Shown here: positions 3,635 to 28,203 of the stretch, piece after piece | Numbering within the stretch: position 1 is the stretch's first letter | Layout of the letters: each line of letters begins with the position of its first letter | Assembly (NCBI GenBank): GCA_963833485.1 | Contig: CAWHXT010000005.1 | Location: forward strand, 21,330-85,329 | Length of the DNA: 64,000 nt | Direction: 5' to 3' | From: an uncultured Candidatus Micrarchaeota archaeon | GTDB lineage: Archaea; Micrarchaeota; Micrarchaeia; Micrarchaeales; CABMGC01 | Translations under genes and position numbers: made by a program | Notes under the pieces: generated by a model | Told to the model about the DNA's origin: nothing | What the model saw: the letters and a program-made list of their open reading frames with translations, nothing else | The model's database searches: none

Positions 3635-3668
3635 GGTTAGAATAGGAACAAGATAAATAAATATGATA

Positions 3669-6280: not shown

Positions 6281-6447
6281 CCACTTTATTTTTTGCAGAG
6301 CTTATACTAACTGTGTATTTTTCCGCTTGTAAAATACTTAGTTGCAAAAACTTAATAAAGTTTGCATTTTTGGGGCTTTACTACCGTTACCAGAGAAATT
6401 ATAGGAAGGTATTTTATCTTATCCATCGATATAAGAGTGGTGGTAAG

Positions 6448-7491: not shown

Positions 7492-7510
7492 TTTTATCTT
7501 TTTTTGTTTA
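7492..7510 (+). terminator. Oligo-T tract after ftsZ
   Basis: 'attttatctttttttgttt' includes a T7 run at 7499-7505 directly after the stop. Archaeal terminators are oligo-T tracts. Confidence 0.35.
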
Positions 7511-7511
7511 T

Positions 7512-8156: not shown

Positions 8157-10463
8157 CTACTGCTCTGATACAACAGTTGCGCCGTTAGCTGCTTTGTCCC
8201 TTGTCAGAAGATAGGTCTTAGAACTTGCAGCTTGCTTGAGATTTTCGTCGTGAGTTATTATGAATATCTGGTCTATGATCCTTGGTAAGGTCTCGTTGAA
8301 CACTTTTATGAACCTGTTCATTCCCTGCTCATCTATGTTGTGAGTAGGTTCGTCCAAGATTATCCACTTCAGGTTTGGCACCAGCACGAGTGAGAATGCT
8401 ACGCGCATTGCAAGGCAAGCTATACTTCTCTCTCCGCCACTTGCTATTGCTTCTACTTCTTCCCATCTTTCCTCTCTCCCGTTGCTCGTCTTAACCATAA
8501 GCGAATAGTCATTTGATTTGGCGTCGAGCATTATGCTTGAATAGTCTTCGTATGGATAAAGTTCAGGCCATACGTTCTGCATCACGTTGTTGATCGAGCC
8601 TATCAGCTTGCTCCTCATTGTTATCTGCGTCTCCTCCAGTGCGTTCTTGAACTTGGTGATATTCTCAACAGCTCCCCTTCTTCTCTTCAGACCCTCCAGC
8701 ATCTTCTCTATTTTTTGGATCTGCTCCTCCTTCTCCTTTATCTGCTTCTCCTTTTCCGAGATGTATTTTGAATGTGCGTCTATCTCTGAGTTGATCTTGA
8801 CAGTGTTAGAATTGATTTGGACAAACTGTTTCTGTTTTACTTCTATTTCCTCCTCTCCGATCTTGATTGCGTTGTGCTCTTTCTCCTTGTCCTTGTTCTC
8901 TTGCTCTAATACTGAGATCTTTTTCGTGAACTCCTCGAGCCTTTCACTCTTTTCTTCACTAGATTCAAGGGAGTTAATGGTTTTCACCAATTCTTCAAGG
9001 TTTTTCCTTGTGTTTTCCACCCTGTCGCGCTCCTTTTCATAGGACTCTTTTGCTGCTGCAACGCTCTTCACAGAATCTTTGAGCTTTTGCTCGAGGCCAA
9101 CATAATCCTTCAGTCTGTCGTGAGAGAGCCTGAGCTTATCAAGCTCCTTCATCTTTTTATCGATTTCTCCCCTTTTTTCGGATATGTCCTTGCTTGCGTC
9201 TTTTATTCGCGCTTCCGCATTTGAGACCAGCGAGTTCTTCCCTTCTATAAGTCTCTTACGCATGTCTTCATCGAGCTCCCTTTCGCATACTGGGCATTTG
9301 CTTAGGTGCTTGCGAAGTTCTTCTATCCATTTTGTGCTTTCTTGCTTCTCTGATTCAAATGCCGCAAGCTGCTTCTCTAGTTCATGGAGGTGTTCAGAAA
9401 GTTTTTTGAGTTCTTTTTCCTCCTTTTCAATATCTCTTCCTTTGTATTCCTGCTCGATCTTATCTCTTTCCCCAATTTTCTGATTAATCTGCTTGACCTG
9501 TGCCTCGATGTCAGAAAGCTCTTTTGAGAATTTTCTCTCTTTTTCCTTTGACGATTGTTCTTCGTCCCTAAGCTTCTCGAGCCTTCCCTTAGTCTTCAAG
9601 ATCTCTTTCTCTATTTCCGCCTTTTCTGGAAGCTTCTCCTTGTTAAGCCTGGTAATCTCTGCCTTGGTAAAATCGATCTTGCTTTTCAACTCTGCAAGCT
9701 CCTTAGAGAGTTTTATCTTTTCTGAATATTCGTTCTTCATCTCTTTTAGCTCTAAATCAATCTTCTTCATTTCAGCGTCTGCTTTTTTCTTTTCTCCTTC
9801 CAGATTTTCTCTCTTCTTCTCAAGCGTCCCAAGTTCATCCTTTAGAGCCTTGTTGCTCTTTTTGAGCTCGTTTACCTCTAGATTCTCGACTATCTTCTCC
9901 TGGTCGCTTATTGCGTCTTTTATCCTGTTAACTAAAGAAGTAGCATTTTCCTGTGCTAGAGCAAACTTGTCAAGCCCTAGGAGCTCGTCTATCTGCTCCT
10001 TCCTGCTCTTCGCGCTAAGTTCAAGGAAATAGTCAAGCCTGTTCTGTTCGGAATATATCGCTCTAGAGAAAAGATCGTAATCGACTTTCAGTATCTTCTC
10101 AATCTCCTCGTTCACCCTCTGCGGCTGTGATTGAAGATAGCTTCCGTTCTTTTCTAGCGTCGCCTTTGCCCCTCCTGTGGTTGATATGACTCTTTCAACA
10201 GTATACGCATTCCCGTCTAGCTCGAAGCTTAATTTTACTTTGGCTTCGTTCTCCTGCGTAGGTCTATTGGTTATCAAGTCGTTAACATTGACTCTTCTAT
10301 GTTGTATCGCCGGGAACACTCCAAATAGGCCGTAAGAGATGGCGTCCATCACGGAACTCTTTCCCGCACCCATGAGACCTATCAGGACATTCGTACCTTT
10401 TGTGAAGTTCAGTTTGGTGTTTCTATGCGTTTTCCAGTTCTTAAGTTCTATAGAAATAATCAT
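8157..10463 (-). CDS. rad50: DNA double-strand break repair ATPase Rad50
   Basis: 768 aa. Walker A 'GLMGAGKSS', long Lys/Glu coiled coil, central zinc hook 'CPVCER', signature 'SGGE', Walker B 'ILDEPT'. Confidence 0.9.
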   Translation of the reverse strand: MIISIELKNWKTHRNTKLNFTKGTNVLIGLMGAGKSSVMDAISYGLFGVFPAIQHRRVNVNDLITNRPTQENEAKVKLSFELDGNAYTVERVISTTGGAKATLEKNGSYLQSQPQRVNEEIEKILKVDYDLFSRAIYSEQNRLDYFLELSAKSRKEQIDELLGLDKFALAQENATSLVNRIKDAISDQEKIVENLEVNELKKSNKALKDELGTLEKKRENLEGEKKKADAEMKKIDLELKEMKNEYSEKIKLSKELAELKSKIDFTKAEITRLNKEKLPEKAEIEKEILKTKGRLEKLRDEEQSSKEKERKFSKELSDIEAQVKQINQKIGERDKIEQEYKGRDIEKEEKELKKLSEHLHELEKQLAAFESEKQESTKWIEELRKHLSKCPVCERELDEDMRKRLIEGKNSLVSNAEARIKDASKDISEKRGEIDKKMKELDKLRLSHDRLKDYVGLEQKLKDSVKSVAAAKESYEKERDRVENTRKNLEELVKTINSLESSEEKSERLEEFTKKISVLEQENKDKEKEHNAIKIGEEEIEVKQKQFVQINSNTVKINSEIDAHSKYISEKEKQIKEKEEQIQKIEKMLEGLKRRRGAVENITKFKNALEETQITMRSKLIGSINNVMQNVWPELYPYEDYSSIMLDAKSNDYSLMVKTSNGREERWEEVEAIASGGERSIACLAMRVAFSLVLVPNLKWIILDEPTHNIDEQGMNRFIKVFNETLPRIIDQIFIITHDENLKQAASSKTYLLTRDKAANGATVVSEQ

Positions 10464-10535
10464 AGAAATACGTCATAAACATTAAACTAGAATAAGTATA
10501 TAAAAGAGCCCCAGAAAAGAAAATAAGGAGAAGGT

Positions 10536-11165
10536 ATGAAAAGCGCAGAAAGGACAGAAAAAGGTATGGAAAGTACAAAGGTACTAGAAGCAGGCATGGG
10601 GGCAGAAGTACCGAGCACTAAGTACAGATCTTGGATAGAGGATCAGATTGCTGAAAAACTTGAGGAGGAAGGTATCGAATATGATTATATGCCGTTTACC
10701 TTCCTATTAACTGTAGGGGAGAAGCACATAACTTTCCGCCCAGACTTCAGGCTGAAGAAAGGTGGGCAGGATATTAAAATAGACGGCAGAACTGTAGTTA
10801 CAGAGCATCATGGGGAGATAGGACCGGGAGGAAACCAGTTCACAGATAATTTCTTTGAGAAGATGAATGCTTTTATGCACTCCTCTCACGCAGAAAAAAT
10901 CTATCTTCTATTTTCAACAGACATAGATAGAGATAAGCTAGCTAAGCTACTGCGCAACCGTGGATACACCGAGGCGGACCTTGCTGACGAAATATGGTTC
11001 TTTAGGAATGATGAGGGCTATCATGGGTTTATGATGATAAATTCTAGAGGTGGCACAAAAGAACCGCATCTGAAGAACTTCTTTGGGAAGAAGGTGATGA
11101 ATTATATGTTTAAGCACTTACTAAGGAGGAGTCAAACAACAAATAACGAGCGAGCTTCACAGTAA
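10536..11165 (+). CDS. Hypothetical protein; possible restriction-endonuclease-like (PD-(D/E)xK) fold
   Basis: The pattern 'E..GIEYDY...ITFRPDF...DGRTVVTEHHG' resembles Vsr/DUF559-type nuclease cores. This is motif-level only. Confidence 0.3.
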   Translation: MKSAERTEKGMESTKVLEAGMGAEVPSTKYRSWIEDQIAEKLEEEGIEYDYMPFTFLLTVGEKHITFRPDFRLKKGGQDIKIDGRTVVTEHHGEIGPGGNQFTDNFFEKMNAFMHSSHAEKIYLLFSTDIDRDKLAKLLRNRGYTEADLADEIWFFRNDEGYHGFMMINSRGGTKEPHLKNFFGKKVMNYMFKHLLRRSQTTNNERASQ

Positions 11166-11402
11166 GCTTTCTTCCGCTACTTCTACTTCATTCACTCCTT
11201 TAACCTTTTTCAGCTTTTGCTCGTATATGTCGCTTCCTTCAGTATCTTCATGTATGAACAGCACTTTGATAACTTTTATGCCGAACGCTATCTCTTCAAG
11301 CTGCATACTATTCGGCTTAAGATTTTGGGCAATATCTCTTCCAACTATTTCCTCTTGCCCTGCTTCTACATAAACTTTAAATAGTACTGCAACTTTTCCC
11401 AT
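11157..11402 (-). CDS. Translation elongation factor aEF-1 beta
   Basis: 81 aa. 'KV..E.....', 'EIAFGIKVIKV' and 'GVNEVEV' are collinear with archaeal EF-1beta. The stop of the upstream Zn-ribbon gene abuts its ATG. Confidence 0.85.
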   Translation of the reverse strand: MGKVAVLFKVYVEAGQEEIVGRDIAQNLKPNSMQLEEIAFGIKVIKVLFIHEDTEGSDIYEQKLKKVKGVNEVEVAEESLL

Positions 11403-11572
11403 CTAAGGCCCCTCAAAATCACATTTGCTGCATTTGTACTTGGTGTTCGTCTCCCTGCAGTGGTCGCACCTGATTATAACTGACTCCCCACACTTAGGGC
11501 ATTTGAATTCGACATACCTGTCGGTAAGCCTTCCGCATGAACTGCAGACCTTTCCTGGCGAAACTCCTACAT
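11403..11572 (-). CDS. Small Zn-ribbon protein (COG2888-like, typically paired with aEF-1beta)
   Basis: Reads '...GKVCSSCGRLTDRYVEFKCPKCGESVIIRCDHCRETNTKYKCSKCDFEGP*'. Below the ORF-track size cut-off. The only nearby ATG (11570-11572) is out of frame by one base, and the length becomes divisible by 3 only with 1 nt added. Confidence 0.6.
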
Positions 11573-11638
11573 AATCACCCTTATTAAAAACAAGTAATAA
11601 GTATAGGTTTAATATACGAAAACATATAAAAAAGTGTT

Positions 11639-11713
11639 GGGCACGTGGCGCAACTTGGATGGCGCGACGGCTTGCGGAGCCGCTGGTTGCGGGTTCAAAT
11701 CCCGCCGTGCCCG
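11639..11713 (+). tRNA. tRNA-Arg (anticodon GCG)
   Basis: Manual cloverleaf: acceptor GGGCACG/CGTGCCC, D arm GCGC/GCGC, anticodon loop TTGCGGA, T arm GCGGG-TTCAAAT-CCCGC. No encoded CCA. Confidence 0.9.
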
Positions 11714-11719
11714 AATAGG

Positions 11720-12100
11720 TTATACCCTCAGTCTATCAGGTAAATCAAGTTTCACTTGATCTTTGGGGATGATGTCCGCTACATAATATTGTTTTCCCTG
11801 CGTGCTAAATTGCTTGAATTCCCTAAATTTGTCACCGTCTCTAAAAACTAACATATCTCTATCATGACAGAGTGAAATTAGTTGCTCAATATTCCCTAGA
11901 AGTTCTTCTTTACTATAGTTTGATGGGAGACTGTGAGAGGCTCTGAGATGCCTTCCCAATACTGCTAACTTTGCTATTTTCTCGTTAAGCTCTTCTGCTT
12001 TTTCTGCGACGTCCTTTGGGATTTCTACTATTGTATAAATTACTGTATCAGCTTCCATTCTGGTTGACTCCACATAATAAAAAGAATCTTCGCTCATCAC
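11720..12100 (-). CDS. Hypothetical protein
   Basis: 126-aa ORF with no recognisable motif. Confidence 0.4.
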   Translation of the reverse strand: MMSEDSFYYVESTRMEADTVIYTIVEIPKDVAEKAEELNEKIAKLAVLGRHLRASHSLPSNYSKEELLGNIEQLISLCHDRDMLVFRDGDKFREFKQFSTQGKQYYVADIIPKDQVKLDLPDRLRV

Positions 12101-12236
12101 ACCCCCTTCATTTATTTATTGTCTTAGTGAAAAATTTAGAAGTTGTGGCAATGTTTATTATATCTTAATCCAACCACGCATTGTTCGCATTTTTGGATAT
12201 GGGCAACGCTTAAAAATAAGCATTCCTAATAGCATC

Positions 12237-13103
12237 ATGCTTTCTTTAGGACTGACGGTTGCTTTCGGTGCCATGCTCTCTTTCGCAGCGTCTGATTTTT
12301 TTGCGAAGAGTTCGTCGGCTAAGCTTGGTAGCAAAAGAACAACTTTAATAATGTTATCGACTAGTTTTATCGTCTTAATTTTGGTAGCATTTTTCTTTGG
12401 ACTAACAAAAATTAACTTACCAGTATTGTTTTTCTCCGTGCTATCTGGTCTGGTTTATGCATTCGGATATTTGTTTTTATACAAGTCTTTAGAAACCGAG
12501 CAGGTATCAAATACGATATCGCTTACAGGGATAGAGTACGGGCTTGTAACAGTGATCTCTGTATTAGTTATTGGGGAAATAGTAACAAAAATTGAAATAT
12601 TGAGTTTCTTTAGCATATTCATAGGCGCTTTCCTTGTTACAACAACTAAAGGATTTAAACTAAATAAGGGGTACATTCCAGCAATACTGGCGATGGTTGC
12701 TTTTTCGATAACTTATATTCTTCTGGTTTTTGCTCAGCAGCACAGTGGAGGGGTTTTTACTCCTTTGATCTTCAATAGAATTGTTTCAGTGTCATTGATT
12801 GCCGTATATACAAAAGTTTCACCTGAAAAGAGTGCACGTTTTAAGCGCATTAAAATTCGAGAAGCAGGGTATGTAACTCTGTTGAAAAGCATGTCTGTTG
12901 GAGTATTCAATGCTTTAGCCTCTATCCTTTATTTGTTCCTTGCTCCGTTGGGATTTATTGCGGTATGAGCTGCCATAAACGCTACGGAACCTGCACTAAT
13001 AATATTTCTTGGTTACCTTTTCTACAAAGATCGGTTTGGAAAGCATCAGATAGTAGGCTTTGTACTGTTAGTTCTTGGAACTATAGCACTGAGCATCGCT
13101 TGA
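12237..13103 (+). pseudogene. EamA/DMT-family transporter interrupted by an in-frame TGA
   Basis: Ten-TM-like hydrophobic protein. After the TGA at 12966-12968 the same frame continues 'AAINATEPALIIFLGYLFYKDRFGKHQIVGFVLLVLGTIALSIA*', a typical EamA C-terminus. Total length is 289 codons. Confidence 0.65.
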
Positions 13104-13104
13104 A

Positions 13105-13857
13105 TTATGGGAAGAAGATGAACTTAATAGCGCTCGCAAATACCACAATGAGAACCAGTGCTCGTATCCAACCTTCTCCTTGCTTTAATCCGAAACGCAC
13201 TCCAAATATGGACCCCAGCGCGAATCCTACGAAAAGCACCACAGACAATTCCCAGTTAACAATATTTCCTAGAATAAACACAAACGATGCGAGGTTTGCT
13301 CCAATATACAAAGTTACTTTGCCAACAACCGACGCATCGATGTATTTTTTCTTATAATTTAGGATGTAGAGTGAAGACAGAAGAGGCACAAGACCTCCAA
13401 CTATCACGTTGAAAAATCCAACAATTGCTGTGCAGATTAGCCCGACGGCATGTCTCATTTTCGTCGGATGAGAAGTGGCGTGCTTTTTATCTCTTAATCT
13501 ATTTTGTATAAGAAGCACGACTTCTACAAAGAGAAGTAACACGCCTATCAGCAATTGAAGAGTTTTTGGAGGAATTGACAAAATAAATATTCCAGAGATA
13601 AGGCTTCCTATAAACATCGGGGGGATCATTATCTTTACGAGCTTCCAGTCTATAATCTTCTTTTTGTGGAGCAAAAATATTGCGGGAAATTCGCCAGGTA
13701 TGTCTGCTATTCTCACAGTGCCTATGACTATTGGCGCGGGAAATCCGATTAGAATTAGCAAAGGTCGTAGGAGAAGGCCGACGCCGCCACTTATTGCACC
13801 GATAAACATTGTGCCGAACGCTATGACAAAGGCAAGAAAAAGAGTCAAGAGGTCCAC
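13105..13857 (-). CDS. TauE/SafE (DUF81, TSUP) family membrane exporter
   Basis: 250 aa polytopic protein. N-terminus 'FGTMFIGAISGGVGLLLRPLLILIGFP' is typical of the family. Confidence 0.75.
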   Translation of the reverse strand: MDLLTLFLAFVIAFGTMFIGAISGGVGLLLRPLLILIGFPAPIVIGTVRIADIPGEFPAIFLLHKKKIIDWKLVKIMIPPMFIGSLISGIFILSIPPKTLQLLIGVLLLFVEVVLLIQNRLRDKKHATSHPTKMRHAVGLICTAIVGFFNVIVGGLVPLLSSLYILNYKKKYIDASVVGKVTLYIGANLASFVFILGNIVNWELSVVLFVGFALGSIFGVRFGLKQGEGWIRALVLIVVFASAIKFIFFP

Positions 13858-13938
13858 ACAATCAGCTCCGTAGAAATCTTATCACCAAAGAGATATAATA
13901 ATTGATGTATCGATGCGTAAAAATTTCTATATTTTTAC

Positions 13939-14469
13939 TTACTTGATCTCCCTTATGCTACTCTTGCCGACTAAAAAGAAGTTTATTTTTCTTGATCCTA
14001 AATCGTCCATTATGTAAGAGATGTTATCTGATTTATCTTCGTAGAAATCTATTTTTTTGTATTTTTTAGTGAGCTCTTTAAGCTTCCTTCTTTTCCATTC
14101 CTCATCCTTTATCTTTCTGTATTTAAACTCACGAAATATTATCTTGTCAAAATTCACTTTCCCTTTCTTGAGGAGGATAAGTGTCTTGTTTTTAAGAGCC
14201 AAGAAGCGTGCAGTAAGGATTATCTTATCCATTCTATCTTCATTTGATAGCAAGCTAATGACTCTTTTGTTTGGTTTTGCGTATCTGTCGTATTTTGAAT
14301 AAGCCAGATAATAGAGCTTAATCTTGGCACTTCTCGGAAGAGCTCTTATCCATTTTTTGCTTCTCACCTTGTCGAATTCTTCTTTGGAAGCAAAACGCAC
14401 GCATTTATCGGTGAAAAATACAGTATTGTCAAAATCCACGACTATGGCTTTATCTTGCATAGATATCAC
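13939..14469 (-). CDS. HAD-superfamily phosphatase-like protein
   Basis: Motif I 'VVDFDNTV' (DxDxT), motif II-like 'ILTAR', C-terminal 'YEDKSDN'. ATGA overlap with the upstream gene. Confidence 0.5.
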   Translation of the reverse strand: MISMQDKAIVVDFDNTVFFTDKCVRFASKEEFDKVRSKKWIRALPRSAKIKLYYLAYSKYDRYAKPNKRVISLLSNEDRMDKIILTARFLALKNKTLILLKKGKVNFDKIIFREFKYRKIKDEEWKRRKLKELTKKYKKIDFYEDKSDNISYIMDDLGSRKINFFLVGKSSIREIK

Positions 14470-15359
14470 CCGTCAATTCCTACAAATTTCTCATCGACCC
14501 ATCCAGAATCAGAAAGACCCAGAAACCTGTCTTCTCTTTTCTCAGGCTTTGTGGCTGTCTGGAATATGAAATGGGTGTGGATCGGCGTGCTAGGAGCCAT
14601 AGCGTGCGAACCATTTATCATGATGCCATGCTGTGATGCTCCGATCCTATTTGCATTAGACACCCTGTGCATTCCGTCTCTCAATACAGGCATGGTGCTT
14701 ATGCTTGGATTCCTTAAAATATCCTCCCAAACTTTTATCACCTCTCTTAGGTCTATTTCTCTTTCAGCGCCGTCGAAAGATGGAAGTGTGAATATGGGGG
14801 CGCGGTCAGCCCTTCTCCTCAGATTTTCAAGAGGGGTTGCTATATCTTCCTTAGGTAGCTCTTCTACTATAGGGGGGATATAGAATCCAACTAACTTGGT
14901 ATTGCCTTGCCTGAAGTTTATTATGCATGCTTCTGCATTATTTACGCCAGTGAAATCATTATGTTGGAAAAGGAGCGTCAAGTTCTCAAGTGACATCATC
15001 TTACTAACCTGCGCGAAGGTTTGGTAGTTGAATATACCGTCATGCGTTATCGAATACCTTGTTATTACAGCATCAGAGTATACCTTTTCGCCCTTTTCAT
15101 TAGGTATGCTTACAAGCAATGCGTTGAGATCCGTCACTGGCATGCTTGTGATCTTTATAGATATGTCTGCGTTCTTATCCCTGAGGTCCTTATAGTCTAT
15201 CAAGCGGGATATGTCGATTGGAGAAACGACGAGATCCGCGTCTATCACGGTTTCTTTGATGCCGCCGTAACCATTCTTCTTCAGTTCAACCCTGCTTAAG
15301 AAATCCCTTGGTTCTATTGCCCATTTAAAATCGGACTTTTGAAGATTAGTTACTTGCAT
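14466..15359 (-). CDS. Hypothetical protein with a possible C-terminal ParB/Srx-like motif
   Basis: 297 aa. 'PVLRDGMHRVSNANRIG' resembles the DGxHR core of the ParB/sulfiredoxin/DGQHR superfamily. The N-terminal ~200 aa are unrecognised. Confidence 0.35.
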   Translation of the reverse strand: MQVTNLQKSDFKWAIEPRDFLSRVELKKNGYGGIKETVIDADLVVSPIDISRLIDYKDLRDKNADISIKITSMPVTDLNALLVSIPNEKGEKVYSDAVITRYSITHDGIFNYQTFAQVSKMMSLENLTLLFQHNDFTGVNNAEACIINFRQGNTKLVGFYIPPIVEELPKEDIATPLENLRRRADRAPIFTLPSFDGAEREIDLREVIKVWEDILRNPSISTMPVLRDGMHRVSNANRIGASQHGIMINGSHAMAPSTPIHTHFIFQTATKPEKREDRFLGLSDSGWVDEKFVGIDG

Positions 15360-15492
15360 AGAACCCCATTATATACACCTTGACTATATTTTAATACTTG
15401 CCAAATTTTTCATTTATGCGGATTTCCAATTCTTCATTTTTGTATAAACAAGTTTATTATATTTTAATTCGTAAGTAAATTCAGGTTTTACA

Positions 15493-15843
15493 ATGAAGCT
15501 TCCATTCTTTGGCAAAGAGGACGTAAATATAACACAGGCAAATATAACCTACAATACCTCTAAGCATACTTATTTTGGAATGAAGGCAAAAAGGGATTTT
15601 ACCTACAAGTTGCCATTCTCGAACTCTGAGGTAGTCTCATTGAGGATTCTTAACATCGAGGTGAGCGATCCATTCGAGCTGAAGAAGTTGAACTACAATC
15701 TTCCTATTAATGTGAGCTCAGGGCAGAAGCTGGTTTTTGAGCTGAAATGCAGGTTCAAGGGTGACTATGCATACAACGGTCCCATAGAGATAAAGATAAA
15801 CGCGCTTCCTATGATGGGCGCAGCTATGTTCGATAGTAAATAG
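15493..15843 (+). CDS. Hypothetical protein
   Basis: 116-aa ORF in an AT-rich accessory-looking stretch, with no motif. Confidence 0.35.
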   Translation: MKLPFFGKEDVNITQANITYNTSKHTYFGMKAKRDFTYKLPFSNSEVVSLRILNIEVSDPFELKKLNYNLPINVSSGQKLVFELKCRFKGDYAYNGPIEIKINALPMMGAAMFDSK

Positions 15844-15851
15844 TAAAAAAA

Positions 15852-16469
15852 TTAAGAAGGTACACGATTCTTAGAACCATTAGTTAATACTGAACTACGC
15901 AGTCCCTTAGGAATAAGAGACCTGTCTCTTACTAAGCTATTAACGAAATCAGAGGTATGGTTTGGAGAAAGAAGAGGTTCATGATCCCCAAACAGCAGTC
16001 TATCTGATATTCTTCCTAATACTACTGACTCTGCGGCACAAATCGTTCCCTTTTCTCTTTGGACCTCCTTTAACTTTCCTATATTCTCTTCAATGTCTCC
16101 AGTAAAAGTGAGGAGCTCGGGGTTTCCTTTAGGTCTAAATTGATAAGCCAAAAAATCTATACCACGAACATTGCGACCTTGTTCGGATACATGGCCTCCT
16201 AGAAATGCAACTCCAAATACATTCGGAAATCTAGCAAATGCATTATATCTGCATATTTCACTATATTTATATAACTCGGGGGCAGTGGTTATTTCCTCAA
16301 GTGCCATTTTTACAAATCCTAAACTTTCCTCTGCGTTATAGGTGTATGAACCTTTTCTTTCAGGATCCGAGAAGCTCTCTAAAGTGAAAACTGCTATAGG
16401 TAGAAGTCCGTGCATTGTGCTGTCTGCACCGATAAATTTTGATCCGTCATATGTATTCTTGTGATCCAT
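15852..16469 (-). CDS. Hypothetical protein
   Basis: 205-aa ORF with no recognisable motif. Confidence 0.4.
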   Translation of the reverse strand: MDHKNTYDGSKFIGADSTMHGLLPIAVFTLESFSDPERKGSYTYNAEESLGFVKMALEEITTAPELYKYSEICRYNAFARFPNVFGVAFLGGHVSEQGRNVRGIDFLAYQFRPKGNPELLTFTGDIEENIGKLKEVQREKGTICAAESVVLGRISDRLLFGDHEPLLSPNHTSDFVNSLVRDRSLIPKGLRSSVLTNGSKNRVPS

Positions 16470-16599
16470 AATTTTACCTATGTAGAGTATGAGTTTGGAT
16501 CTTTATAAATTAGATTAATTGTTTGTTTTAGCTATGAATAACAAGTAAGAAAGAGAGAAAAAAAGGAAAAAATAAAAAATAAAATTAAAGGTTAAGGAT

Positions 16600-16824
16600 T
16601 TATCTCCTTCCCCTTCGGTTCATCTTTGCTCTTGCGACGTATCCGCCCTTGTCTATGAAGTAAAGGAATCCCTCCGCTCTTGAGATCCTCTCCGTTCCAA
16701 CTTTGGCCTTTCTGCCTCTTGTGTTGGTCTTCATTGGCGTCCTCCACACGAATCCATCCTTCCCTAGGAAGTATAGATATCCGTCTTCTCTTGAGATTCT
16801 TTCGCGTCCAATTCTTTCTGCCAT
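16600..16824 (-). CDS. Small basic protein with an internal tandem repeat
   Basis: Two copies of '(R/T)ERISR(E/A)(D/E)G(Y/F)LYF...(K)(D/G)G(F/Y)V.R..M'. Start set at the ATG at 16822-16824. Confidence 0.45.
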   Translation of the reverse strand: MAERIGRERISREDGYLYFLGKDGFVWRTPMKTNTRGRKAKVGTERISRAEGFLYFIDKGGYVARAKMNRRGRR

Positions 16825-16982
16825 ATATTTCACCTTCGATAATACGTCGAAGCACATGTTTATATATTTATCGTCGAATTTACGTCAGAAAGATAAAAGG
16901 TTAAAATACTTTCCATGATTTTTTGGGCAAAACAGGCACTAAGAACTGATTTAAATGTTTACGGTACAAGTCTATTGATAGT

Positions 16983-17717
16983 ATGATAGAGATAAAGCTT
17001 AACAAGAGTTACGACCTCAAGGGGTACACTTTGATAGAGGGATTTCCCGGAGCAGGACTAGTTGGACCGATGGCCAGCAGCTACATAATCGAAAAACTCA
17101 ATATGGAGTACATAGGTTATATAGAGAGTGACTCTTTTCCACCAATTGCTGCGGTGCACGACAGCGTGCCGATGTTCCCTGTTAGAGTTTACAAAGACGA
17201 TAGATACAAGATAGTCGTAGTCATATCAGAGTTTACGATCCCCGTAGAAGTTATTTACCAACTGAGCAACGAGCTTATAAACTTCATAAGAAAGGAGAGC
17301 ATAGCGCAGGTTATCTCAATAGGAGGGATGCCGTCGCAGAAACCTTCAGAAACAGCATATGGAATAGCTTCAAACAAGGCTATGTCAAAGAAGCTGAAGG
17401 ACGCAGGAATAAGTACGATAGGAGAGGGGGTGGTTGCAGGAGTCAGCGCACTCTTGCTGGCTAACAGCATACAGTTTGATCTTCCTGTGATTGACATACT
17501 CGTGCAGGTCGACCCGATGATGATGAACCCGAAGTACGCGGTCCTTGCCATAACCAACCTGAAGAAGCTCATAAAGATAGATATAAACACAGAAGAGCTA
17601 GAGAAAGAATCGAAGCTCGTTGAGGCCAAGGTGAGGGAGATATTAAAGAAGACAAGGGACTCGCACGAGAGCTACAAGAACGCAGTGGACGCTACTGGGC
17701 CTTCGATGTACGCTTGA
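16983..17717 (+). CDS. PAC2-family (proteasome assembly chaperone-like) protein
   Basis: 'LIEGFPGAGLVGPMA' is the hallmark N-terminal motif. The 244-aa length fits the family. Confidence 0.75.
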   Translation: MIEIKLNKSYDLKGYTLIEGFPGAGLVGPMASSYIIEKLNMEYIGYIESDSFPPIAAVHDSVPMFPVRVYKDDRYKIVVVISEFTIPVEVIYQLSNELINFIRKESIAQVISIGGMPSQKPSETAYGIASNKAMSKKLKDAGISTIGEGVVAGVSALLLANSIQFDLPVIDILVQVDPMMMNPKYAVLAITNLKKLIKIDINTEELEKESKLVEAKVREILKKTRDSHESYKNAVDATGPSMYA

Positions 17718-22666: not shown

Positions 22667-23209
22667 TCAGTATACTGGGTGGCTTTCTTCAACACCGTTG
22701 CTGAAGTTTAGGTAAAGTGCTACTGCAAAGAAGAAAGATGAAAGTCTGTTCATGTAAGAAAGCACATTCTGATCTATGTTGTATTTCTTAGAAGCGGCGA
22801 CAACTTTTCTTTCAGCTCTCCTTGCTACAGCCCTTGCAAGATGTGTGTGTATCGCACCTTCAGAACCCCCAGGTATCACAAATTTCTTCAATTCAGGCAC
22901 CTTGTCGCCCATCGTCTTTATCGCACTTTCCAGTCTATCGAGCTTGCTCTTGTCTATTGAAAGCTTCTTTGGAGACTTTTGCATTGCATCTGCGAGAATG
23001 GCGCCTATTGTAAACAGATCGTTCTGAACTGCCTTCAGTTCATATCTTACCTGCTCGTCTCTTACGTAGAAGAGAGCTATGCCAGTGCAGCTGTTCAGCT
23101 CGTCAACGTCCCCTATGGCCTCTATCAGAACGTCTTCCTTTGAAAGCTTTTCTCCTCCCATTATTGAGGTGTCCCCTTTGTCTCCCTTACCAGTATAGAA
23201 GGTAGTCAT
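22667..23209 (-). CDS. PduO-type ATP:cob(I)alamin adenosyltransferase
   Basis: 'YTGKGDKGDTS', 'GDVDELNSCTG' and 'FVIPGGSEG' are all hallmark motifs. Confidence 0.85.
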   Translation of the reverse strand: MTTFYTGKGDKGDTSIMGGEKLSKEDVLIEAIGDVDELNSCTGIALFYVRDEQVRYELKAVQNDLFTIGAILADAMQKSPKKLSIDKSKLDRLESAIKTMGDKVPELKKFVIPGGSEGAIHTHLARAVARRAERKVVAASKKYNIDQNVLSYMNRLSSFFFAVALYLNFSNGVEESHPVY

Positions 23210-23272
23210 TCAGTCTCGATAATATATGCCCTTCGTAATTTTTATATTTAACCTTCACCTATTCTAAATTAC

Positions 23273-23343
23273 GGGCTCGTGGTCCAGCGGTAAGACGCCA
23301 CTTTCACAGAGTGGAGAGCGGAGTTCGACTCTCCGCGGGCCCA
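23273..23343 (+). tRNA. tRNA-Val (anticodon CAC)
   Basis: Acceptor GGGCTCG/CGGGCCC (one G-U pair), anticodon arm CCACT-TTCACAG-AGTGG, T arm CGGAG-TTCGACT-CTCCG. Confidence 0.9.
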
Positions 23344-23395
23344 TCACCAGATTTGTCGTCGAAGAAAATTTGTTAAAAACACAGTTTGTCGTCTT

Positions 23396-23410
23396 GGAGT
23401 TCAACTCTCC
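23396..23410 (+). repeat. tRNA-Val T-arm-like fragment
   Basis: 'ggagttcaactctcc' matches the T arm of the adjacent tRNA-Val ('ggagttcgactctcc') at 14 of 15 positions. It lies 53 nt after the tRNA. Confidence 0.5.
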
Positions 23411-23434
23411 TCCTTTTCAGTTTAATGGAAAATT

Positions 23435-23776
23435 TCAAATTATCTTTAAATGTATGCCAACTACGCCATTTAGTTTTTCCTCTTCTTTACTATAAATTGA
23501 GTATTGTTTTTCCAGTTGCTCATCTAACGTAATATTTTTAGGATGGCCTAATTTTGTTTTATCAAAAGTCGAAAGAAGATCTTTGAAAGACTTGAATACT
23601 GAGAGACCAATCACTTCACATTTTACTTTTTCTCCATCAGGCAGTCTTTCAAATATAATAGTATCTCCTAAATTGATTTTCCTTCTCTTTTCATCCAAGA
23701 GCCTTATTTCGATTGTCTTTTTTCTAGTCCTAACTAGCTCAAAAGGTTCTTGATTAAGATGCATGTTATGTATCAT
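23435..23776 (-). CDS. ASCH (PUA-like) domain protein
   Basis: 'EPFELVRTRKKTIEIRLLDEKRRKINLGDTIIF' is a typical ASCH N-terminal core. 113 aa. Confidence 0.7.
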   Translation of the reverse strand: MIHNMHLNQEPFELVRTRKKTIEIRLLDEKRRKINLGDTIIFERLPDGEKVKCEVIGLSVFKSFKDLLSTFDKTKLGHPKNITLDEQLEKQYSIYSKEEEKLNGVVGIHLKII

Positions 23777-23801
23777 TTACACCATCTTAGTATTTTTACG
23801 G

Positions 23802-24986
23802 TCATTCTCTTAAAACATATGTAAGATACTCTGCACTATAATTCCTAAATAATTTCTTTGGATCTGAAGTCCAATTTTTTACTTCAGCCCAAAGTTTTTC
23901 TAATCCTTGCTCTCCGTACTGCTTTTTGAATTCAACTAGATTCAAGAATCCTTCAGGCATATCATAAGTTCCTTTTTGCACATACACTGATTTTGAAAAC
24001 TTCGCACCAGACCAGTCTTCTATTATCGGAGTAAAGAGCCTCATTGGCCTATCAGAATAATTATATTTAAGTAAAGACAGACCTTCAGATACAATATATT
24101 CTGTCATATGTACCCAATCTCCTCCATCTACCATGAGATCTAGCGCCTTTCCTTCTTTTGCTTCTTCTATGAATAATGCTTCTTTAATTACATTTCTAAC
24201 AGGGGTGTTCATATCAATAAAGTCTTTATTATCACCACTCAAAGTAATTTCATAAGGCCCGTGATCAGGACATTCACTTAATAAAATAAGACTATTGCGA
24301 CTTATGCTCGCTTTTATTTTAGTTTTTACACCGGATTTTTCAGCAAACTTGCAAATTGGGCAAGGAAATCTGACTCTAAGATGACCTTCGGATGGAGCTA
24401 CTACTGGAGCAAATTCACTTTCTCTATCAATCATTTCAAGCAGCGTTTTCCTAACAAATGGAATCTCTTGGAATTGCTTGTAGTATAGAATTTCATAATC
24501 TACTCCTGTTTTCTTCTTTAATAGTTCTAAGATTTCCTTAAAAGAGTTTAGGTATACTTCTGATAATGGACCCTCACCGACGTATGTGTCGCAATGCATC
24601 TTTGCATAGGTCAAACCGTTGACAACTTTTTGCTCTTTGGGTGCATTTTCTAAAGCTTCAAATTTAATTTTTGCCGGAATTGCGAAACGATTTGATAACT
24701 TTTCGGCTATAGCAAATGCGGTCATTATGCTTAATACAGAGCCTAAATGTGGGTGGCTATTCATTTGTGCAGAAAAATGTATCTGTATGCTTTGCTTGTC
24801 TTTAATTCTTGGTGCAAAAAGATCTGTTACATCATTTGTTATATGTGCTATCACGACAGGTGGATATACTAAGGGTTTGTCTGTTTTCAAATCTTTTCTG
24901 ACTAAAGTATCTATGTGGTCTTTCTCTGAATATACAGTTTCGCCTGAGCTATTTTTGCTATTTTCTTTTTTCACAATCCCCACCAA
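23802..24986 (-). CDS. Class-I aminoacyl-tRNA-synthetase-like (HIGH/KMSKS nucleotidyltransferase) protein with no evident anticodon-binding domain
   Basis: HIGH-like 'HPHLG' (nt 24741-24755) and KMSKS-like 'KFSKS' (nt 23988-24002) lie about 250 aa apart. A 'CPIC...CPDHG' knuckle sits between them. TTG/GTG start directly abuts the upstream stop. Confidence 0.45.
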   Translation of the reverse strand: MVGIVKKENSKNSSGETVYSEKDHIDTLVRKDLKTDKPLVYPPVVIAHITNDVTDLFAPRIKDKQSIQIHFSAQMNSHPHLGSVLSIMTAFAIAEKLSNRFAIPAKIKFEALENAPKEQKVVNGLTYAKMHCDTYVGEGPLSEVYLNSFKEILELLKKKTGVDYEILYYKQFQEIPFVRKTLLEMIDRESEFAPVVAPSEGHLRVRFPCPICKFAEKSGVKTKIKASISRNSLILLSECPDHGPYEITLSGDNKDFIDMNTPVRNVIKEALFIEEAKEGKALDLMVDGGDWVHMTEYIVSEGLSLLKYNYSDRPMRLFTPIIEDWSGAKFSKSVYVQKGTYDMPEGFLNLVEFKKQYGEQGLEKLWAEVKNWTSDPKKLFRNYSAEYLTYVLRE

Positions 24987-25478
24987 TTAAAAACTATTTA
25001 TTCTGCTTTGTCTTCTAAAAGTATCTGGTAATTTGCTTTCTAATAGCGTAAGTAATCGCCTATGCTGCTCTTCTTCTTTTTTCAGATAATAGAAGTTTTG
25101 AGGCGCTATGAAACTAGGCATTAATTCCTTTATTTGCGCGAATCCTATTTCAATTCGAACAGGACTTTCTACACGAAGTGCTGAGCATAAGTCTATGCCT
25201 TTGAAATATTCTGTAAGTCCTTCTCTAGTGGACGTTGTTTCGTTTAATGTTAGTTCTATTAGAGAATCTAACGGCTTTCGTAAAAGTTTGGTGACTTGAC
25301 ATACTCCTACTATAGCCTTGGTTTCTTCAGTAGCATACAAAGCCATGGGTGTAGATTCTTCTATATTCGGAGGTGTTCTTCTGTATTCCCATTTCTTTAC
25401 GCCGCTAAGTATGGCTTCGGCAAATTTAGGCTTAATGCTCAGGACTATTATCCTATTAAAATCCCCCATTTTATTCAA
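24987..25478 (-). CDS. ASCH-domain protein (longer form, with C-terminal extension)
   Basis: 'LSIKPKFAEAILSGVKKWEYRR' is a typical ASCH/COG4933 N-terminus. 163 aa. Confidence 0.6.
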   Translation of the reverse strand: MNKMGDFNRIIVLSIKPKFAEAILSGVKKWEYRRTPPNIEESTPMALYATEETKAIVGVCQVTKLLRKPLDSLIELTLNETTSTREGLTEYFKGIDLCSALRVESPVRIEIGFAQIKELMPSFIAPQNFYYLKKEEEQHRRLLTLLESKLPDTFRRQSRINSF

Positions 25479-25589
25479 ATATAATAGTACATTTCTCCTA
25501 TTTAAATAATACTTATAAATTTGTTTTTAACTAAATGATGAATAAATATATATGGCAAATGCCATACAAAGAGAGTGCTACCTTAGACA

Positions 25590-25607
25590 TCGTGGTCCGC
25601 GGGCCCA
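25590..25607 (+). repeat. tRNA-Val-derived fragment (putative att-like direct repeat)
   Basis: 'tcgtggtccgcgggccca'. Its last 12 nt are identical to the tRNA-Val 3' end (23332-23343) and its first 9 nt to tRNA positions 5-13. Confidence 0.6.
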
Positions 25608-25634
25608 GATTAACAACCCCAAATACTCATAGAG

Positions 25635-26759
25635 TTGATAACTATTCAACGTTCAAGAGATAAGTTTCGTTCAGAGATTAAAATCATAATAATCATATTC
25701 GTAATCACTTTCTTAGCGCGCGCAGTTTTAGCTTATCTTACAGTTTCGAGAGGATATGTGCCTTATTATTATTGGTTCGAAACTTTCAACGATTTTTTTG
25801 AAACTTCGAAAGTGCTAAGCTCATTAAGTAGTGGAATATTACCATATCTCAATTTTCTTTATCAATATCCTCCATTATCTCTTTACGTTGCTTATCCTTT
25901 CTTTCTAATAGGAGGTAAATTTGGCTTTGCATTTTTGGTAATTATAGCAGACTCTTGCTCAGCTGTCTTAATTTATAAAATAGTAAGAGAATTTGCAAGT
26001 AAAGGAGTTTCCACCGTCGCTTGGATTGCGTATGCACTTTCGCCATTTGTACTGCTCTACGAAGGCCTCACGCTGATGAACATCGAACCTATGCTATTTT
26101 TCATACTTCTTGCAGTTTACTTCTTGCATAACAAGAAGCTGATCTACTCCTCTCTTGCGCTTTCAGTAGCGATAATGTTTAGGCAGGAGGCGCTTTTCGC
26201 ATTACTTATGTACCTTCCAGTAATCCACAGTTACGATCGCAAGACCATTCTAAAAGCGGTTATTGCGTTCTTGGGAGTAATCATTGTTGTCTCTGGACCT
26301 TTCTTGATTCTTGCCCCTTATCAGTACATTAGCATGATAAGCTACAATACAAGGGATTTCTTCGCAGCGATAACTCCTAATATAACAGAACTGTTATTGT
26401 TTGCAATAGCCGCATTTACATTCTTGATTCTTTACAAAGAGCGGAAAAGCAAGAATATTATTGAATTATGGGGAGCATTCGGTTTCGCTCTGCTAATCAT
26501 GTTTTTCGTATATTTTGACATTAATCCTCCATTTAGGTATTACTATTTGCCTGTCTACGCTCTCTTATTGGCGGGATGCACCAAATGGAAAATGTCATTG
26601 GCTTGGTTCTGCTTTACAACAGTTAGCCTAATAATCCCACCAGGTTACGTACAAGAGGCGCTCCCATATCTAACGTTGTTGACGCTTATTGCAATACAAA
26701 GAGAAATTCATTTTAGAAATTTTGTGCTGCGTGTCAAGTCTAAAGTGTTAAATTTATAA
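25635..26759 (+). CDS. Polytopic membrane protein, possibly a GT-C type glycosyltransferase
   Basis: 374 aa with about 10 hydrophobic segments. Assigned by architecture only. TTG start. Confidence 0.35.
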   Translation: MITIQRSRDKFRSEIKIIIIIFVITFLARAVLAYLTVSRGYVPYYYWFETFNDFFETSKVLSSLSSGILPYLNFLYQYPPLSLYVAYPFFLIGGKFGFAFLVIIADSCSAVLIYKIVREFASKGVSTVAWIAYALSPFVLLYEGLTLMNIEPMLFFILLAVYFLHNKKLIYSSLALSVAIMFRQEALFALLMYLPVIHSYDRKTILKAVIAFLGVIIVVSGPFLILAPYQYISMISYNTRDFFAAITPNITELLLFAIAAFTFLILYKERKSKNIIELWGAFGFALLIMFFVYFDINPPFRYYYLPVYALLLAGCTKWKMSLAWFCFTTVSLIIPPGYVQEALPYLTLLTLIAIQREIHFRNFVLRVKSKVLNL

Positions 26760-26901: not shown

Positions 26902-28203
26902 ATGCCATCAAACGGAGAAGAAAAGAAAAAATATAAGTTTTTATTCGTCACGCAAGAAGCATTATCACTTGATCTAGCTTGGCAGTTAGAAAAAGAAGGG
27001 CATGAAGTTAAGTTCTATTGTCATGACCAGCCTGAGAAAGACGTTGGAGAGGGATTTGTAGATAAAGTAGATAGTTGGGAAGAGCAGAAGGACTGGGCAG
27101 ACATCGTGGTTTTTGACGATGTGGGGTGGGGGTCGAAAGCTGACCAACTTAGGAAGGAGGGAAAGTTTGTAGTTGGAGGCTCCTCTTACACAGACAAGCT
27201 CGAGTTAGATAGGGATTTTGGGCAGAACGAATTAAAGGAGGCTGAAGTGCCGATTCTATTGAGCCATAACTATACCTCTTTTGATGAGGCAATTGATTTT
27301 GTAAAAAACAACCCAGATAAGTATGTAATAAAACCCAGTGGAGCTATCCAGGATGAAAAAGAGCTCCTGTTTGTGGGCCAGGAGGACAATGGCGCAGATG
27401 TGCTGCAGGTTCTTGAGCACTACAAAAGCACATGGTCCAAGAAGATAAAGACATTTTTACTGCAAAAGGTTGCAGAGGGAGTCGAGGTCGCGGTTGGGGC
27501 CTTCTTTAACGGAAAGGACTTTGTGCTGCCAGTCAACATAAACTTTGAGCATAAGAGACTTTTCCCTAATGAGATAGGTCCAAGCACTGGAGAGATGGGA
27601 ACCAGCATGATGTGGGTGAAAAGCAGCCCGGTATTTGATACCACTCTGAAGAAAATGAAGGATAAGATTGCGGCGAGCGGATATGTTGGATACATAGACA
27701 TCAACTGCATAGCAAATGGGAGGGGGATATGGCCATTGGAATTCACCTCACGCTTCGGGTATCCTACAATAAGCATCCAGATGGAGGGGATAACGAGCGA
27801 GTGGGGGCAGTTCCTTTACGATTTGGCGCACGGGAACGATGTTCAATTGAAGACTAAGAAAGGATACCAGGTGGGAGTCATCATTGCAATTCCTCCATTT
27901 CCGTTTGAGGATGAAAAGGCCTTCAACAAATACTCAGAAGGAGCCGCAATTCTTTTCAGAAGGCAGAATCTTGACGGAGTGCATATAGGCGAGGTGAAGC
28001 GCAATGGAGATGACTGGTATATCGCTGGAAAGTCTGGATACGCGCTGATAATCACTGGATCTGGAGTTACTATGGCAAACGCGATAAACGGAGCTTACCA
28101 GAACGTCAAGAACGTGATGATACCAAACATGTTCTATAGATCTGACATAGGACATAGGTGGTATAGGGACAGCGACATGCTGCTCAGCTGGGGCTACTTC
28201 TGA
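26902..28203 (+). CDS. PurD-like ATP-grasp enzyme (phosphoribosylamine-glycine ligase family)
   Basis: Collinear with PurD motifs: 'YVIKPSG', 'EHKRL', 'GPSTGEMGT' (cf. GPNTGGMG), 'EFTSRFGYPT' (cf. EFNCRFGDPE), 'SDIGHRW'. The N-terminus lacks the canonical GGREHA. Confidence 0.55.
   Translation: MPSNGEEKKKYKFLFVTQEALSLDLAWQLEKEGHEVKFYCHDQPEKDVGEGFVDKVDSWEEQKDWADIVVFDDVGWGSKADQLRKEGKFVVGGSSYTDKLELDRDFGQNELKEAEVPILLSHNYTSFDEAIDFVKNNPDKYVIKPSGAIQDEKELLFVGQEDNGADVLQVLEHYKSTWSKKIKTFLLQKVAEGVEVAVGAFFNGKDFVLPVNINFEHKRLFPNEIGPSTGEMGTSMMWVKSSPVFDTTLKKMKDKIAASGYVGYIDINCIANGRGIWPLEFTSRFGYPTISIQMEGITSEWGQFLYDLAHGNDVQLKTKKGYQVGVIIAIPPFPFEDEKAFNKYSEGAAILFRRQNLDGVHIGEVKRNGDDWYIAGKSGYALIITGSGVTMANAINGAYQNVKNVMIPNMFYRSDIGHRWYRDSDMLLSWGYF

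Follow-up and report, generated by a model that had tools for sequence, protein, structure and literature searches.

A three-gene islet bounded by copies of a tRNA-Val 3' end in a Micrarchaeota contig is a candidate integrative cassette

Results

A low-GC islet beside tRNA-Val(CAC)

We analyzed a stretch of 64,000 nucleotides (the window) from an uncultured Candidatus Micrarchaeota archaeon (contig CAWHXT010000005.1). Our subject is an islet (23344-25607) that lies between an intact gene for tRNA-Val(CAC) and a second copy of the end of that tRNA. (Coordinates without a label are those of the window; L001 to L031 are labels for comparison contigs or loci.) The islet is filled by three genes, all on the minus strand and none of them an integrase: an ASCH-domain protein, a ligase related to class I lysyl-tRNA synthetase (LysRS), and another ASCH-domain protein. 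The first of these genes ends 92 nt past tRNA-Val. The features of the locus are listed in Table 1.

Table 1. Features of the tRNA-Val locus and its flanks. GC3 is the GC content at third codon positions.
Feature	Position	Strand	Evidence	Remark
PduO-type cobalamin adenosyltransferase	22667..23209	-	Pfam PF01923 E 2e-51	conserved left flank, host core
tRNA-Val(CAC)	23273..23343	+	intact; ARAGORN; Rfam RF00005 53.4 bits	proposed target of integration, attL side
Core repeat, copy 1	23332..23343	+	TCCGCGGGCCCA	final 12 nt of tRNA-Val
tRNA-proximal arm of islet	23344..23434	+	two direct TTTGTCGTC motifs and T-arm-like remnant GGAGTTCAACTCTCC	
ASCH-domain protein, 113 aa, PH0355/PF0455-like	23435..23776	-	PF04266 E 6e-9; PHROG 19935 E 2e-26; GC3 0.254	
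Truncated class I lysyl-tRNA-synthetase-like ligase, 390-394 aa	23802..24986	-	PHROG 35625 'tRNA synthetase' E 7e-41; GC3 0.271	
ASCH-domain protein, 160-163 aa, Zymomonas ASCH-like	24987..25469	-	PF04266 E 3e-7; PDB 5guq E 4e-14; GC3 0.287	
TATA-like box TTTAAATA	25501..25508	-	read from the sequence; the same module in L017 has one too	upstream of operon
Distal arm beside repeat	25549..25595	+	hairpin TATGGCAAATGCCATA 25551-25566; GAGAGT 25571-25576; then 19 nt to core	
Core repeat, copy 2	25596..25607	+	TCCGCGGGCCCA; core plus GATTA, 17 nt, identical to L010 copy 2	attR-like
Membrane glycosyltransferase-like gene	25635..26759	+	weak EpsG/PMT_2 matches; GC 0.37, GC3 0.37	
PurD-like ATP-grasp gene	26902..28203	+	76-80% identical to L011 gene near PduO/tRNA-Val	conserved right flank, host core

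The final 12 nt of tRNA-Val recur exactly at the far end of the islet. These are the only two occurrences in the window, both on the plus strand, and there are no others even if one mismatch is allowed. The second copy is the end of an 18-mer (TCGTGGTCCGCGGGCCCA, 25590-25607) whose leading 9 nt also match positions 5-13 of tRNA-Val (23277-23285). Close to the tRNA, GGAGTTCAACTCTCC (23396-23410) matches the T arm of tRNA-Val (23320-23334) at 14 of 15 positions, and it matches the T arm of the tRNA-Val of L010, a relative that is described below, at all 15. A first-pass annotation, made from the letters alone, had noticed the repeat, the 18-mer, and the T-arm copy, and each of them proved to be as described. 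In a permissive Rfam scan of 23200-25750, the tRNA itself was the sole match. The 3' ends of tRNA-Arg and tRNA-Thr do not have even a 9-nt copy across the window, and a degenerate search past the glycosyltransferase-like gene found no further copy of the tRNA-Val end in the window.

The composition of the islet is unusual for this contig. Its GC content is 0.345, while the mean for the window is 0.438 (standard deviation 0.032). Just 5 of 1235 windows of the same size have GC content as low, and every one of them overlaps the islet. The islet is the lowest-GC stretch of this size (about 2.26 kb) in the window and is among the top tetranucleotide outliers. (The hand counts of G+C in the first-pass annotation, 17 for the line at 23821 and 31 for the line at 53221, were correct.) At third codon positions, the GC content is 0.25-0.29 for the genes of the islet and 0.46-0.62 for the flanking PduO, ScpA, ScpB, Aldh, PurD-like, and HTH-CBS genes.

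The arm of the islet next to the tRNA contains TTTGTCGTC twice in direct orientation (23352-23360 and 23385-23393), between tRNA-Val and the T-arm-like remnant. ATTTGTCG lies downstream of tRNA-Val in both the window and L010, and in L017 the corresponding end of the module has a related motif, TTCGACGACAAA. These motifs may be arm-type binding sites. Also, an exact 16-nt direct repeat (TTCAAATATAATAGTA) is found both in the gene for the 113-aa ASCH protein (23648-23663) and in the 5' leader of the operon (25474-25489).

The closest relatives have other genes after tRNA-Val

The closest relative that we found is L010, whose PduO and Aldh are 79-80% and 87% identical to those of the window. Its gene order is the same (tRNA-Thr ... 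Aldh-ScpA-ScpB-PduO-tRNA-Val), and the part from Aldh to tRNA-Val is also kept in L011 and L012 (PduO 62-64% identical). The homology between L010 and the window ends right after tRNA-Val, and the cargo that follows is different: tRNA-Val, a RibD_C gene, copy 1 of the tRNA end, a Fic gene, and copy 2. In other words, each unit is closed by a copy of the tRNA 3' end. Copy 1 (TTCCGCGGGCC, at +687) is degenerate and copy 2 (TCCGCGGGCCCAGATTA, at +1778) is perfect. The cargo of L010 has low GC content (0.33 for RibD_C, 0.36 for Fic, and 0.35 for the interval, versus 0.45 for the rest of the contig).

The similarity between the window and L010 extends from the core into the adjacent arm. The 43 nt that end in copy 1 of L010 are 88% identical to 25563-25605 of the window, and the 17 nt at 25596-25612 are identical in copy 2. 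We aligned five sites: the two 3' halves of tRNA-Val and the three downstream copies, from the window and L010. AGAGT and TCCGCGGGCC are invariant, at a fixed spacing, in all five. There is a small hairpin upstream of each of the three downstream copies, and the 6 nt before the repeat (TCGTGG, TCGCGT, and CTGTGT) are part of the homologous arm.

The first-pass annotation had suggested that the 18-mer is a collapsed remnant of a tRNA. The 9-nt match to the tRNA and the presence of AGAGT at the spacing of a tRNA 3' half would fit this idea, and TCGTGGTCC is likewise a tRNA-like motif of the arm. But the 6 nt upstream of the core belong to the homologous arm. The homology of the arms and the tRNA-like spacing of AGAGT point to different origins, and a tRNA origin for the 18-mer is not established.

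In L011 and L012, other genes follow tRNA-Val, and there are no copies of the repeat. The PurD-like gene marks the other side of the variable genes: because its homologue in L011 sits just beyond them, we consider it to be the conserved right flank. Its left neighbors are different in every relative that we examined (the orthologues are 82-85% identical). The stretch from tRNA-Val to the PurD-like gene is thus a variable region that, in the genus-level lineage of the window, is organized by copies of the tRNA 3' end. The glycosyltransferase-like gene had no tblastn match in any of the relatives' loci that we fetched, and it is probably a further part of this variable region; it may be an older islet.

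The same three-gene module is found in other settings

The ASCH-ligase-ASCH module is also present in other contigs, and its settings differ among L001-L006, L017, L025, and L027. In L027, which is another archaeal contig, the ligase is 66% identical to that of the window and the module begins 100 nt past the 3' end of tRNA-His(GUG). Its orientation relative to tRNA-His is the same as that of the window's module relative to tRNA-Val. The 18-nt end of tRNA-His (GACTCCCGGCCGAGGCCT) is found again at +2414, +3520, and +4314 (16 nt), and a degenerate copy is at +6099. The result is an array of four islets of 2.4, 1.1, 0.8, and 1.8 kb, each with 1-3 intact genes. (The array is on the reverse strand, from about 100 nt to 6.1 kb past tRNA-His, or about 2560-8680 in the original coordinates.) The later islets encode a 314-aa protein, a DUF218 protein, and a pair of proteins of 372 and 88 aa. 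Upstream of the core, copies c1, c3, and c4 share about 35 nt of arm sequence, and the sequence that follows c3 (TTTCCTATAGGAAAAT) matches the one that follows tRNA-His (TTTCCTATTAGGAAAAT).

Other loci show repeats of other kinds. In L001, the module alone lies between two direct copies of a 39-nt repeat, which are 90% identical and 2341 nt apart. (L001 is one of a group, L001-L005, whose ligases are 77% identical to the window's.) In L025, with a ligase that is about 61-65% identical, the module lies directly after an archaeal 23S rRNA gene (3380-6239), and successive islets are separated by a repeat of about 65 nt that is present four times (its copies start at about 6240, 8420, 10351, and 11690). 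This repeat array begins at the 3' end of the 23S rRNA gene, and the whole locus, with the rRNA gene, spans 3380-11790. L017, which is from the same sample as L010 (SRR31558123), has the most similar of these ligases (84%). Just downstream of its module, a 56-nt direct repeat (2361-2416 and 2908-2963; 84% identical) surrounds a small Fic/Doc-like gene and a 42-aa ORF, and there is a weaker partial copy of 19 nt (118-136) upstream of the module. Finally, the module of L006 (74%) is a variant with genes for an HTH protein, the ligase, and ASCH. It abuts the 5' side of tRNA-Val(UAC) (9105-9177), and we detected no repeat that flanks it.

Overall, direct repeats that are 2.26, 2.34, and 2.41 kb apart enclose just this module in the window, L001, and L027, and two of these repeats are derived from tRNAs. 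Because the module is bounded by repeats in three independent settings, movement as a unit seems more plausible than repeated trimming of larger elements. Since the module adjoins a tRNA-Val gene in L006 as well, we also asked whether the ligase is functionally tied to tRNA-Val, and we set this idea aside: the module is also found next to tRNA-His, next to 23S rRNA, or away from any tRNA, so its adjacency to tRNA-Val is better explained by integration targets.

The module combines two ASCH proteins with a divergent LysRS paralogue

ASCH proteins are PUA-like and are RNA-binding or RNase-type proteins. The 113-aa protein resembles PH0355/PF0455 from Pyrococcus (PDB:2z0t, E 7e-14). The longer protein is similar to an ASCH protein from Zymomonas (5GUQ), which is reported to be a single-strand-specific ribonuclease. 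The stop codon of the longer ASCH gene abuts the start of the ligase gene, which indicates an operon, and the TATA-like box (TTTAAATA) is its putative promoter. The statement in the first-pass annotation that the islet holds one three-gene operon and no integrase was borne out by scans of the ORFs and by Pfam.

The ligase has the class I Rossmann catalytic fold and resembles class I LysRS. Its AlphaFold2 model (mean pLDDT 89.5) has 1IRX, a class I LysRS, as the best Foldseek match (E 1e-9), followed by structures of GluRS, and 1IRX was also the top match when a profile of the ligase family was compared to the PDB (E 0.022). The motifs HPHLG (HIGH-like) and KFSKS (KMSKS-like) and a Cys3-His cluster are all conserved, and K329, S331, K332, C209, C212, and C239 are invariant. 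On the other hand, weak matches to PF01921 are found in 8 of 51 members of the family, and the window's ligase has no match in Pfam or NCBIfam and falls below every curated family threshold. At 394 aa, versus 523 aa for 1IRX, it falls about 130 aa short of LysRS and is not a full-length enzyme with the anticodon-binding domain. Since it misses the threshold for PF01921 and is not full length, it is a divergent paralogue of class I LysRS and not a LysRS.

Other truncated paralogues of class I aminoacyl-tRNA synthetases, such as GluQ-RS (YadB), also have the class I catalytic domain with HIGH/KMSKS-type motifs and are below the canonical length. GluQ-RS aminoacylates a modified tRNA base instead of the 3' end. 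In contrast to GluQ-RS, the ligase described here is nearest to class I LysRS (1IRX) and not to GluRS, is always paired with ASCH, and is found on mobile elements.

The association with mobile elements is broad. All three proteins of the islet match PHROG families. In Streptomyces phage Picard, a 'tRNA synthetase' (gp28) and an ASCH protein (gp29) are encoded beside the integrase, and at 10 of 11 viral loci from IMG/VR, the ASCH gene comes directly after the ligase gene. The ligase is also found on plasmids of Streptomyces, Macrococcus, and Pantoea. Some versions from actinomycetes are annotated as ASCH-domain proteins, and among the plasmid-borne ligases this annotation is found twice. In one homologue from Actinomadura, Pfam identifies an ASCH domain within the same protein. 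The pair is thus sometimes fused, on plasmids as well.

What might the module do? In PADLOC, the longer ASCH protein matches PDC-M11B (E 1.6e-23), but we found no match for the A component, and PDC-M11 itself is only a candidate system. Searches of the literature on PDC-M11 and on ASCH together with class I LysRS gave nothing useful. By analogy with truncated class I paralogues such as GluQ-RS, we conjecture that the substrate of the cargo is most likely an RNA or a nucleotide: the ligase, which is of an adenylate-forming type, would perform an ATP-dependent ligation onto a substrate that its ASCH partners bind or process. More speculatively, the cargo perhaps serves in conflicts between phages and their hosts. 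The conservation of the ligase together with ASCH, from temperate phages and plasmids of Streptomyces to archaeal islets, suggests a mobile-element enzyme system that has not been studied and that is probably directed at RNA or nucleotides.

On the Pantoea plasmid pJZ29-01 (L016, 74546-78326), the genes around the ligase encode a SAM methyltransferase, a LOG-family protein (TIGR00730), a DMT transporter, and a Ham1-type NTP pyrophosphatase. A Ham1-like gene also neighbors the module in L001-L005. The company in the plasmid operon hints at a nucleotide or nucleoside substrate for the ligase.

Comparison to known types of elements

We compared the islet with elements that are known to integrate at tRNA genes. 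The tRNA is intact, a repeat of its 3' end lies at the distal end, the composition is atypical, and the occupancy differs among relatives, as in other islands integrated at tRNA genes; what is missing is an integrase of its own. Archaeal tRNA-integrated elements likewise sit 3' of an intact tRNA with a distal repeat, foreign composition, and variable occupancy, and they too form tandem arrays by re-using the same site and can lose the integrase. It is documented that archaeal elements can re-use one attachment (att) site in tandem and can lose their integrase once they have integrated (PMC8371274, PMC6563490). Archaeal 'gene capture' and tandem integrations by tyrosine recombinases at tRNA genes are attributed in PMC8371274 to She et al. 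2001 and 2004. In kind, then, the islet fits a known phenomenon: site-specific integration at the 3' end of a tRNA, where the site is re-used in tandem and no integrase is resident. Compared to those elements, the units described here lack an integrase, are just 0.7-2.4 kb (1-3 intact genes), share 12 nt of identity, have conserved arms around different cargo, and are in a DPANN host. A full-text search for Micrarchaeota with integrase, tRNA, and integrated found no paper that, judging by titles and abstracts, describes such arrays.

Several other kinds of elements do not fit. No ORF spans either copy of the repeat, so there are no split integrase fragments of the SSV type (Int(N) and Int(C)), and there are no integrase matches either. 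Similarly, no integrase domain was found among the genes called in L010 and L027. We rejected a casposon or another transposon with terminal inverted repeats: no such repeats abut the duplication, and the Pfam scan found no Cas1 or transposase. Near the ends there is a single inverted pair (23369-23386 and 25517-25534, 83% complementary). It does not lie at the termini, and the scan of the 3.8-kb region reported 19 pairs like it.

Integrons (IntI, attI, and attC) are another point of comparison. Integron cassette arrays have also been reported in Archaea (Ghaly et al. 2022). As in integrons, compact units, mostly with single genes and without their own recombinase, are arranged in arrays with recurring site-like repeats between them, and the cargo consists of conflict or accessory genes (here Fic, RibD_C, DUF218, and the ASCH-ligase module). 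Unlike in integrons, the repeats are copies of the 3' ends of stable RNAs, there are no attC-like hairpins, we found no IntI, the cassettes are in both orientations, and the islet has its own putative promoter. In particular, the repeats between cassettes in the window, L010, L027, L025, L017, and L001 fold no better as single strands than shuffled sequences (z of about 0), so they are not attC-like; nor does the arm with the core form a significant RNA-like structure. Neither intI nor attI was found beside the array in the ORFs that we scanned, and the anchor is the 3' end of the tRNA.

There are also bacterial elements that are bounded by att sites and lack their own recombinase, which is supplied from elsewhere: cis-mobilizable elements (CIME), which use the att sites of integrative and conjugative elements (ICE), and Xer-dependent elements (IMEX), which use dif. 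The islet is analogous in being att-bounded and recombinase-less, and differs in that CIME and IMEX are bacterial and use other sites; no helper was identified here.

The origin of the islet

We propose, with moderate confidence, that the interval 23344-25607 represents a small integrative cassette, about 2.3 kb long and non-autonomous, that came into the chromosome when it recombined site-specifically with the 3' end of tRNA-Val(CAC), and whose recombinase is encoded elsewhere or has been lost. Under this proposal, the cassette would have brought along an attachment site with an arm on either side of the core (TCCGCGGGCCCA). When this site recombined with the end of the tRNA, probably in a reaction of the tyrosine-recombinase type, the 3' end of the tRNA (23332-23343) would have been restored, and the other copy of the core would have remained at 25596-25607. 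The region downstream of tRNA-Val would then be a lineage-specific hot spot where compact cassettes pile up in tandem and are exchanged. We infer that the recombinase acted in trans and moved the cassette as one unit. The first-pass annotation had likewise favored integration or recombination at the tRNA by a recombinase that has been lost or that acts in trans. This idea is supported by the different cargo and conserved arms in L010, by the tRNA-His array in L027, by the foreign composition of the islet, and by the presence of the module on phages and plasmids.

Several observations weigh against an integrated cassette. We scanned 28 ORFs with Pfam, the three of the islet and 25 others from the larger set in the window, and found neither an integrase nor a fragment of one. 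As described in the first-pass annotation, the islet is AT-rich (it is the lowest-GC part of the window by sliding windows and is deviant in its tetranucleotides), but this composition is not confined by the repeats: low GC content continues to about 26.9 kb, across the next gene (25635-26759), which no repeat bounds. An identity block of 12 nt is short for archaeal integrases that target tRNAs. The attachment sequences around the module vary by lineage (tRNA-Val, tRNA-His, the 39-nt repeat, and the repeat beside 23S rRNA), and it is unexplained how one module would join several site-specific systems. The conserved arm could also reflect shared ancestry from one old scar, instead of repeated integration.

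Two further points concern forms of the site that we looked for and did not find. We scanned IMG/VR for the 18-mer, for the T arm with the 3' end, for the core with GATTA, for GAGAGT-N17-21-core, and for the tRNA-His core. There was no free element with an attP or virus with these sites, just chance matches in the coding regions of high-GC phage contigs. The search for the 18-mer and the genes that the first-pass annotation had recommended was thus successful only for the genes, which are in other contigs, phages, and plasmids. That annotation had also recommended looking for an empty site, which would be the end of tRNA-Val (...CTCTCCGCGGGCCCA) joined directly to GATTAACAACCCC. No strict empty site was found in the collections that we searched. 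L010, the nearest relative, has different cargo at the same tRNA-Val, and its core proteins share only about 80% identity with those of the window. Scans of genome and metagenome contigs with the PduO protein yielded just bacterial genes that are 36-39% identical and no close relative, and exact look-ups of the window's ligase protein gave no record. The contigs with PurD-like orthologues that are 82-85% identical end about 1.8 kb upstream of that gene, without tRNA-Val, so they cannot provide an empty site.

How do the alternatives compare? That the 12-mer recurred by chance, and that the AT-rich genes are native, is effectively refuted. Exact direct repeats of at least 12 nt are commonplace (252 maximal ones in the window), and a second 12-mer from tRNA-Val (CTTTCACAGAGT) recurs at 39351, evidently by chance, so the argument in the first-pass annotation that a 12-mer repeat would be rare does not hold for such repeats in general. 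It does hold for the pre-specified event: under a first-order Markov model, the expectation for TCCGCGGGCCCA, which is GC-rich, is 7e-4 per 64 kb or 6e-5 per 5 kb. Furthermore, TCCGCGGGCCCA ends exactly at the tRNA 3' end and sits at the boundary of a compositional islet whose genes have GC3 about 0.3 below that of the flanking genes, and the pattern is replicated by the two copies in L010 and the four in L027, at another tRNA. It is unlikely, but far from implausible, that the islet is what remains of a larger virus or plasmid: an integrase-bearing element would have entered tRNA-Val, and deletions would have spared the three-gene operon, under selection, and the distal att copy. The known integrase loss and tandem integration in archaea (PMC8371274, PMC6563490) would fit this scenario, as would the carriage of the module by plasmids and, next to an integrase, by temperate phages, and the truncated T-arm remnant (23396-23410) suggests a past rearrangement at the tRNA-proximal end. 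However, deletions would need to have trimmed such elements to the same unit independently three times. The neighboring islets in L010 and L027 are equally compact and their genes are intact, and we saw no pseudogenes or viral hallmark genes. There are also no integrase fragments over the att copies, contrary to the expectation for SSV-type elements.

We consider it quite improbable that the arm and core are an old and immobile scar, ancestral to the window's organism and L010, with the cargo exchanged by homologous or illegitimate recombination after uptake of DNA. This would explain why the two genomes have different cargo but keep the arm and core in the same relative position, why GATTA follows the core in both the window copy and copy 2 of L010, and why the region from tRNA-Val to the PurD-like gene is different in every relative examined. 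But a single ancestral scar is insufficient to explain two copies in L010 and four in L027, each of them exactly between compact cassettes. In L027, moreover, the cassettes are flanked by arms at both ends, and the same module is bounded by the end of a different tRNA.

Some features of these cassettes are unusual: the units are small and compact, the arms are conserved while the cargo varies, and in DPANN-type contigs one module turns up in such arrays beside several stable-RNA genes. In combination, the features resemble the dynamics of integron cassettes, without attC or IntI. It is conceivable, and we suggest this only tentatively, that the islet is one unit of an undescribed, integron-like cassette platform of DPANN archaea. 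The cassettes of such a platform would lack a recombinase, would carry an arm-core-arm site whose core is the 3' end of a stable RNA (tRNA-Val, tRNA-His, or possibly the 23S flank), and would be moved singly, by a recombinase from elsewhere, into exchangeable arrays of accessory or conflict genes. DPANN archaea have tiny genomes and few recognized mobile elements. If the idea is correct, then integrase-less arrays at the 3' ends of tRNA and rRNA genes would be a simple route for these archaea to trade accessory genes.

Other observations

In L011, the PurD-like protein (1375-3717, minus strand) has 780 aa. It corresponds to the window's 433-aa protein (76-80% identical), interrupted after residue 233 by about 350 aa that look like an intein. 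In L027, an 88-nt Rfam match to tRNA (9477-9564, minus strand) was missed by ARAGORN and is probably an archaeal tRNA that contains an intron.

Elsewhere in the window, there is a second stretch of lower GC content (0.385) at 11715-17000, just downstream of tRNA-Arg, which encodes EamA and TauE transporters and uncharacterized proteins. We set aside this potential island at about 11.7-17 kb, which has neither an integrase nor a copy of the tRNA-Arg 3' end. Two ORFs overlap at 46627-47878, and each of them matches one half of DUF373. The intact orthologue in L031 aligns to them in two reading frames, with the switch near 47017; this pair of ORFs is a frameshifted pseudogene or an assembly error. 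The stretch 47500-50300 is a highly repetitive coding region with many internal repeats of 12-18 nt. A 352-aa ORF there (49267-50325) has no match in Pfam. In tetranucleotide usage this region deviates the most, and its GC skew is strongly negative.

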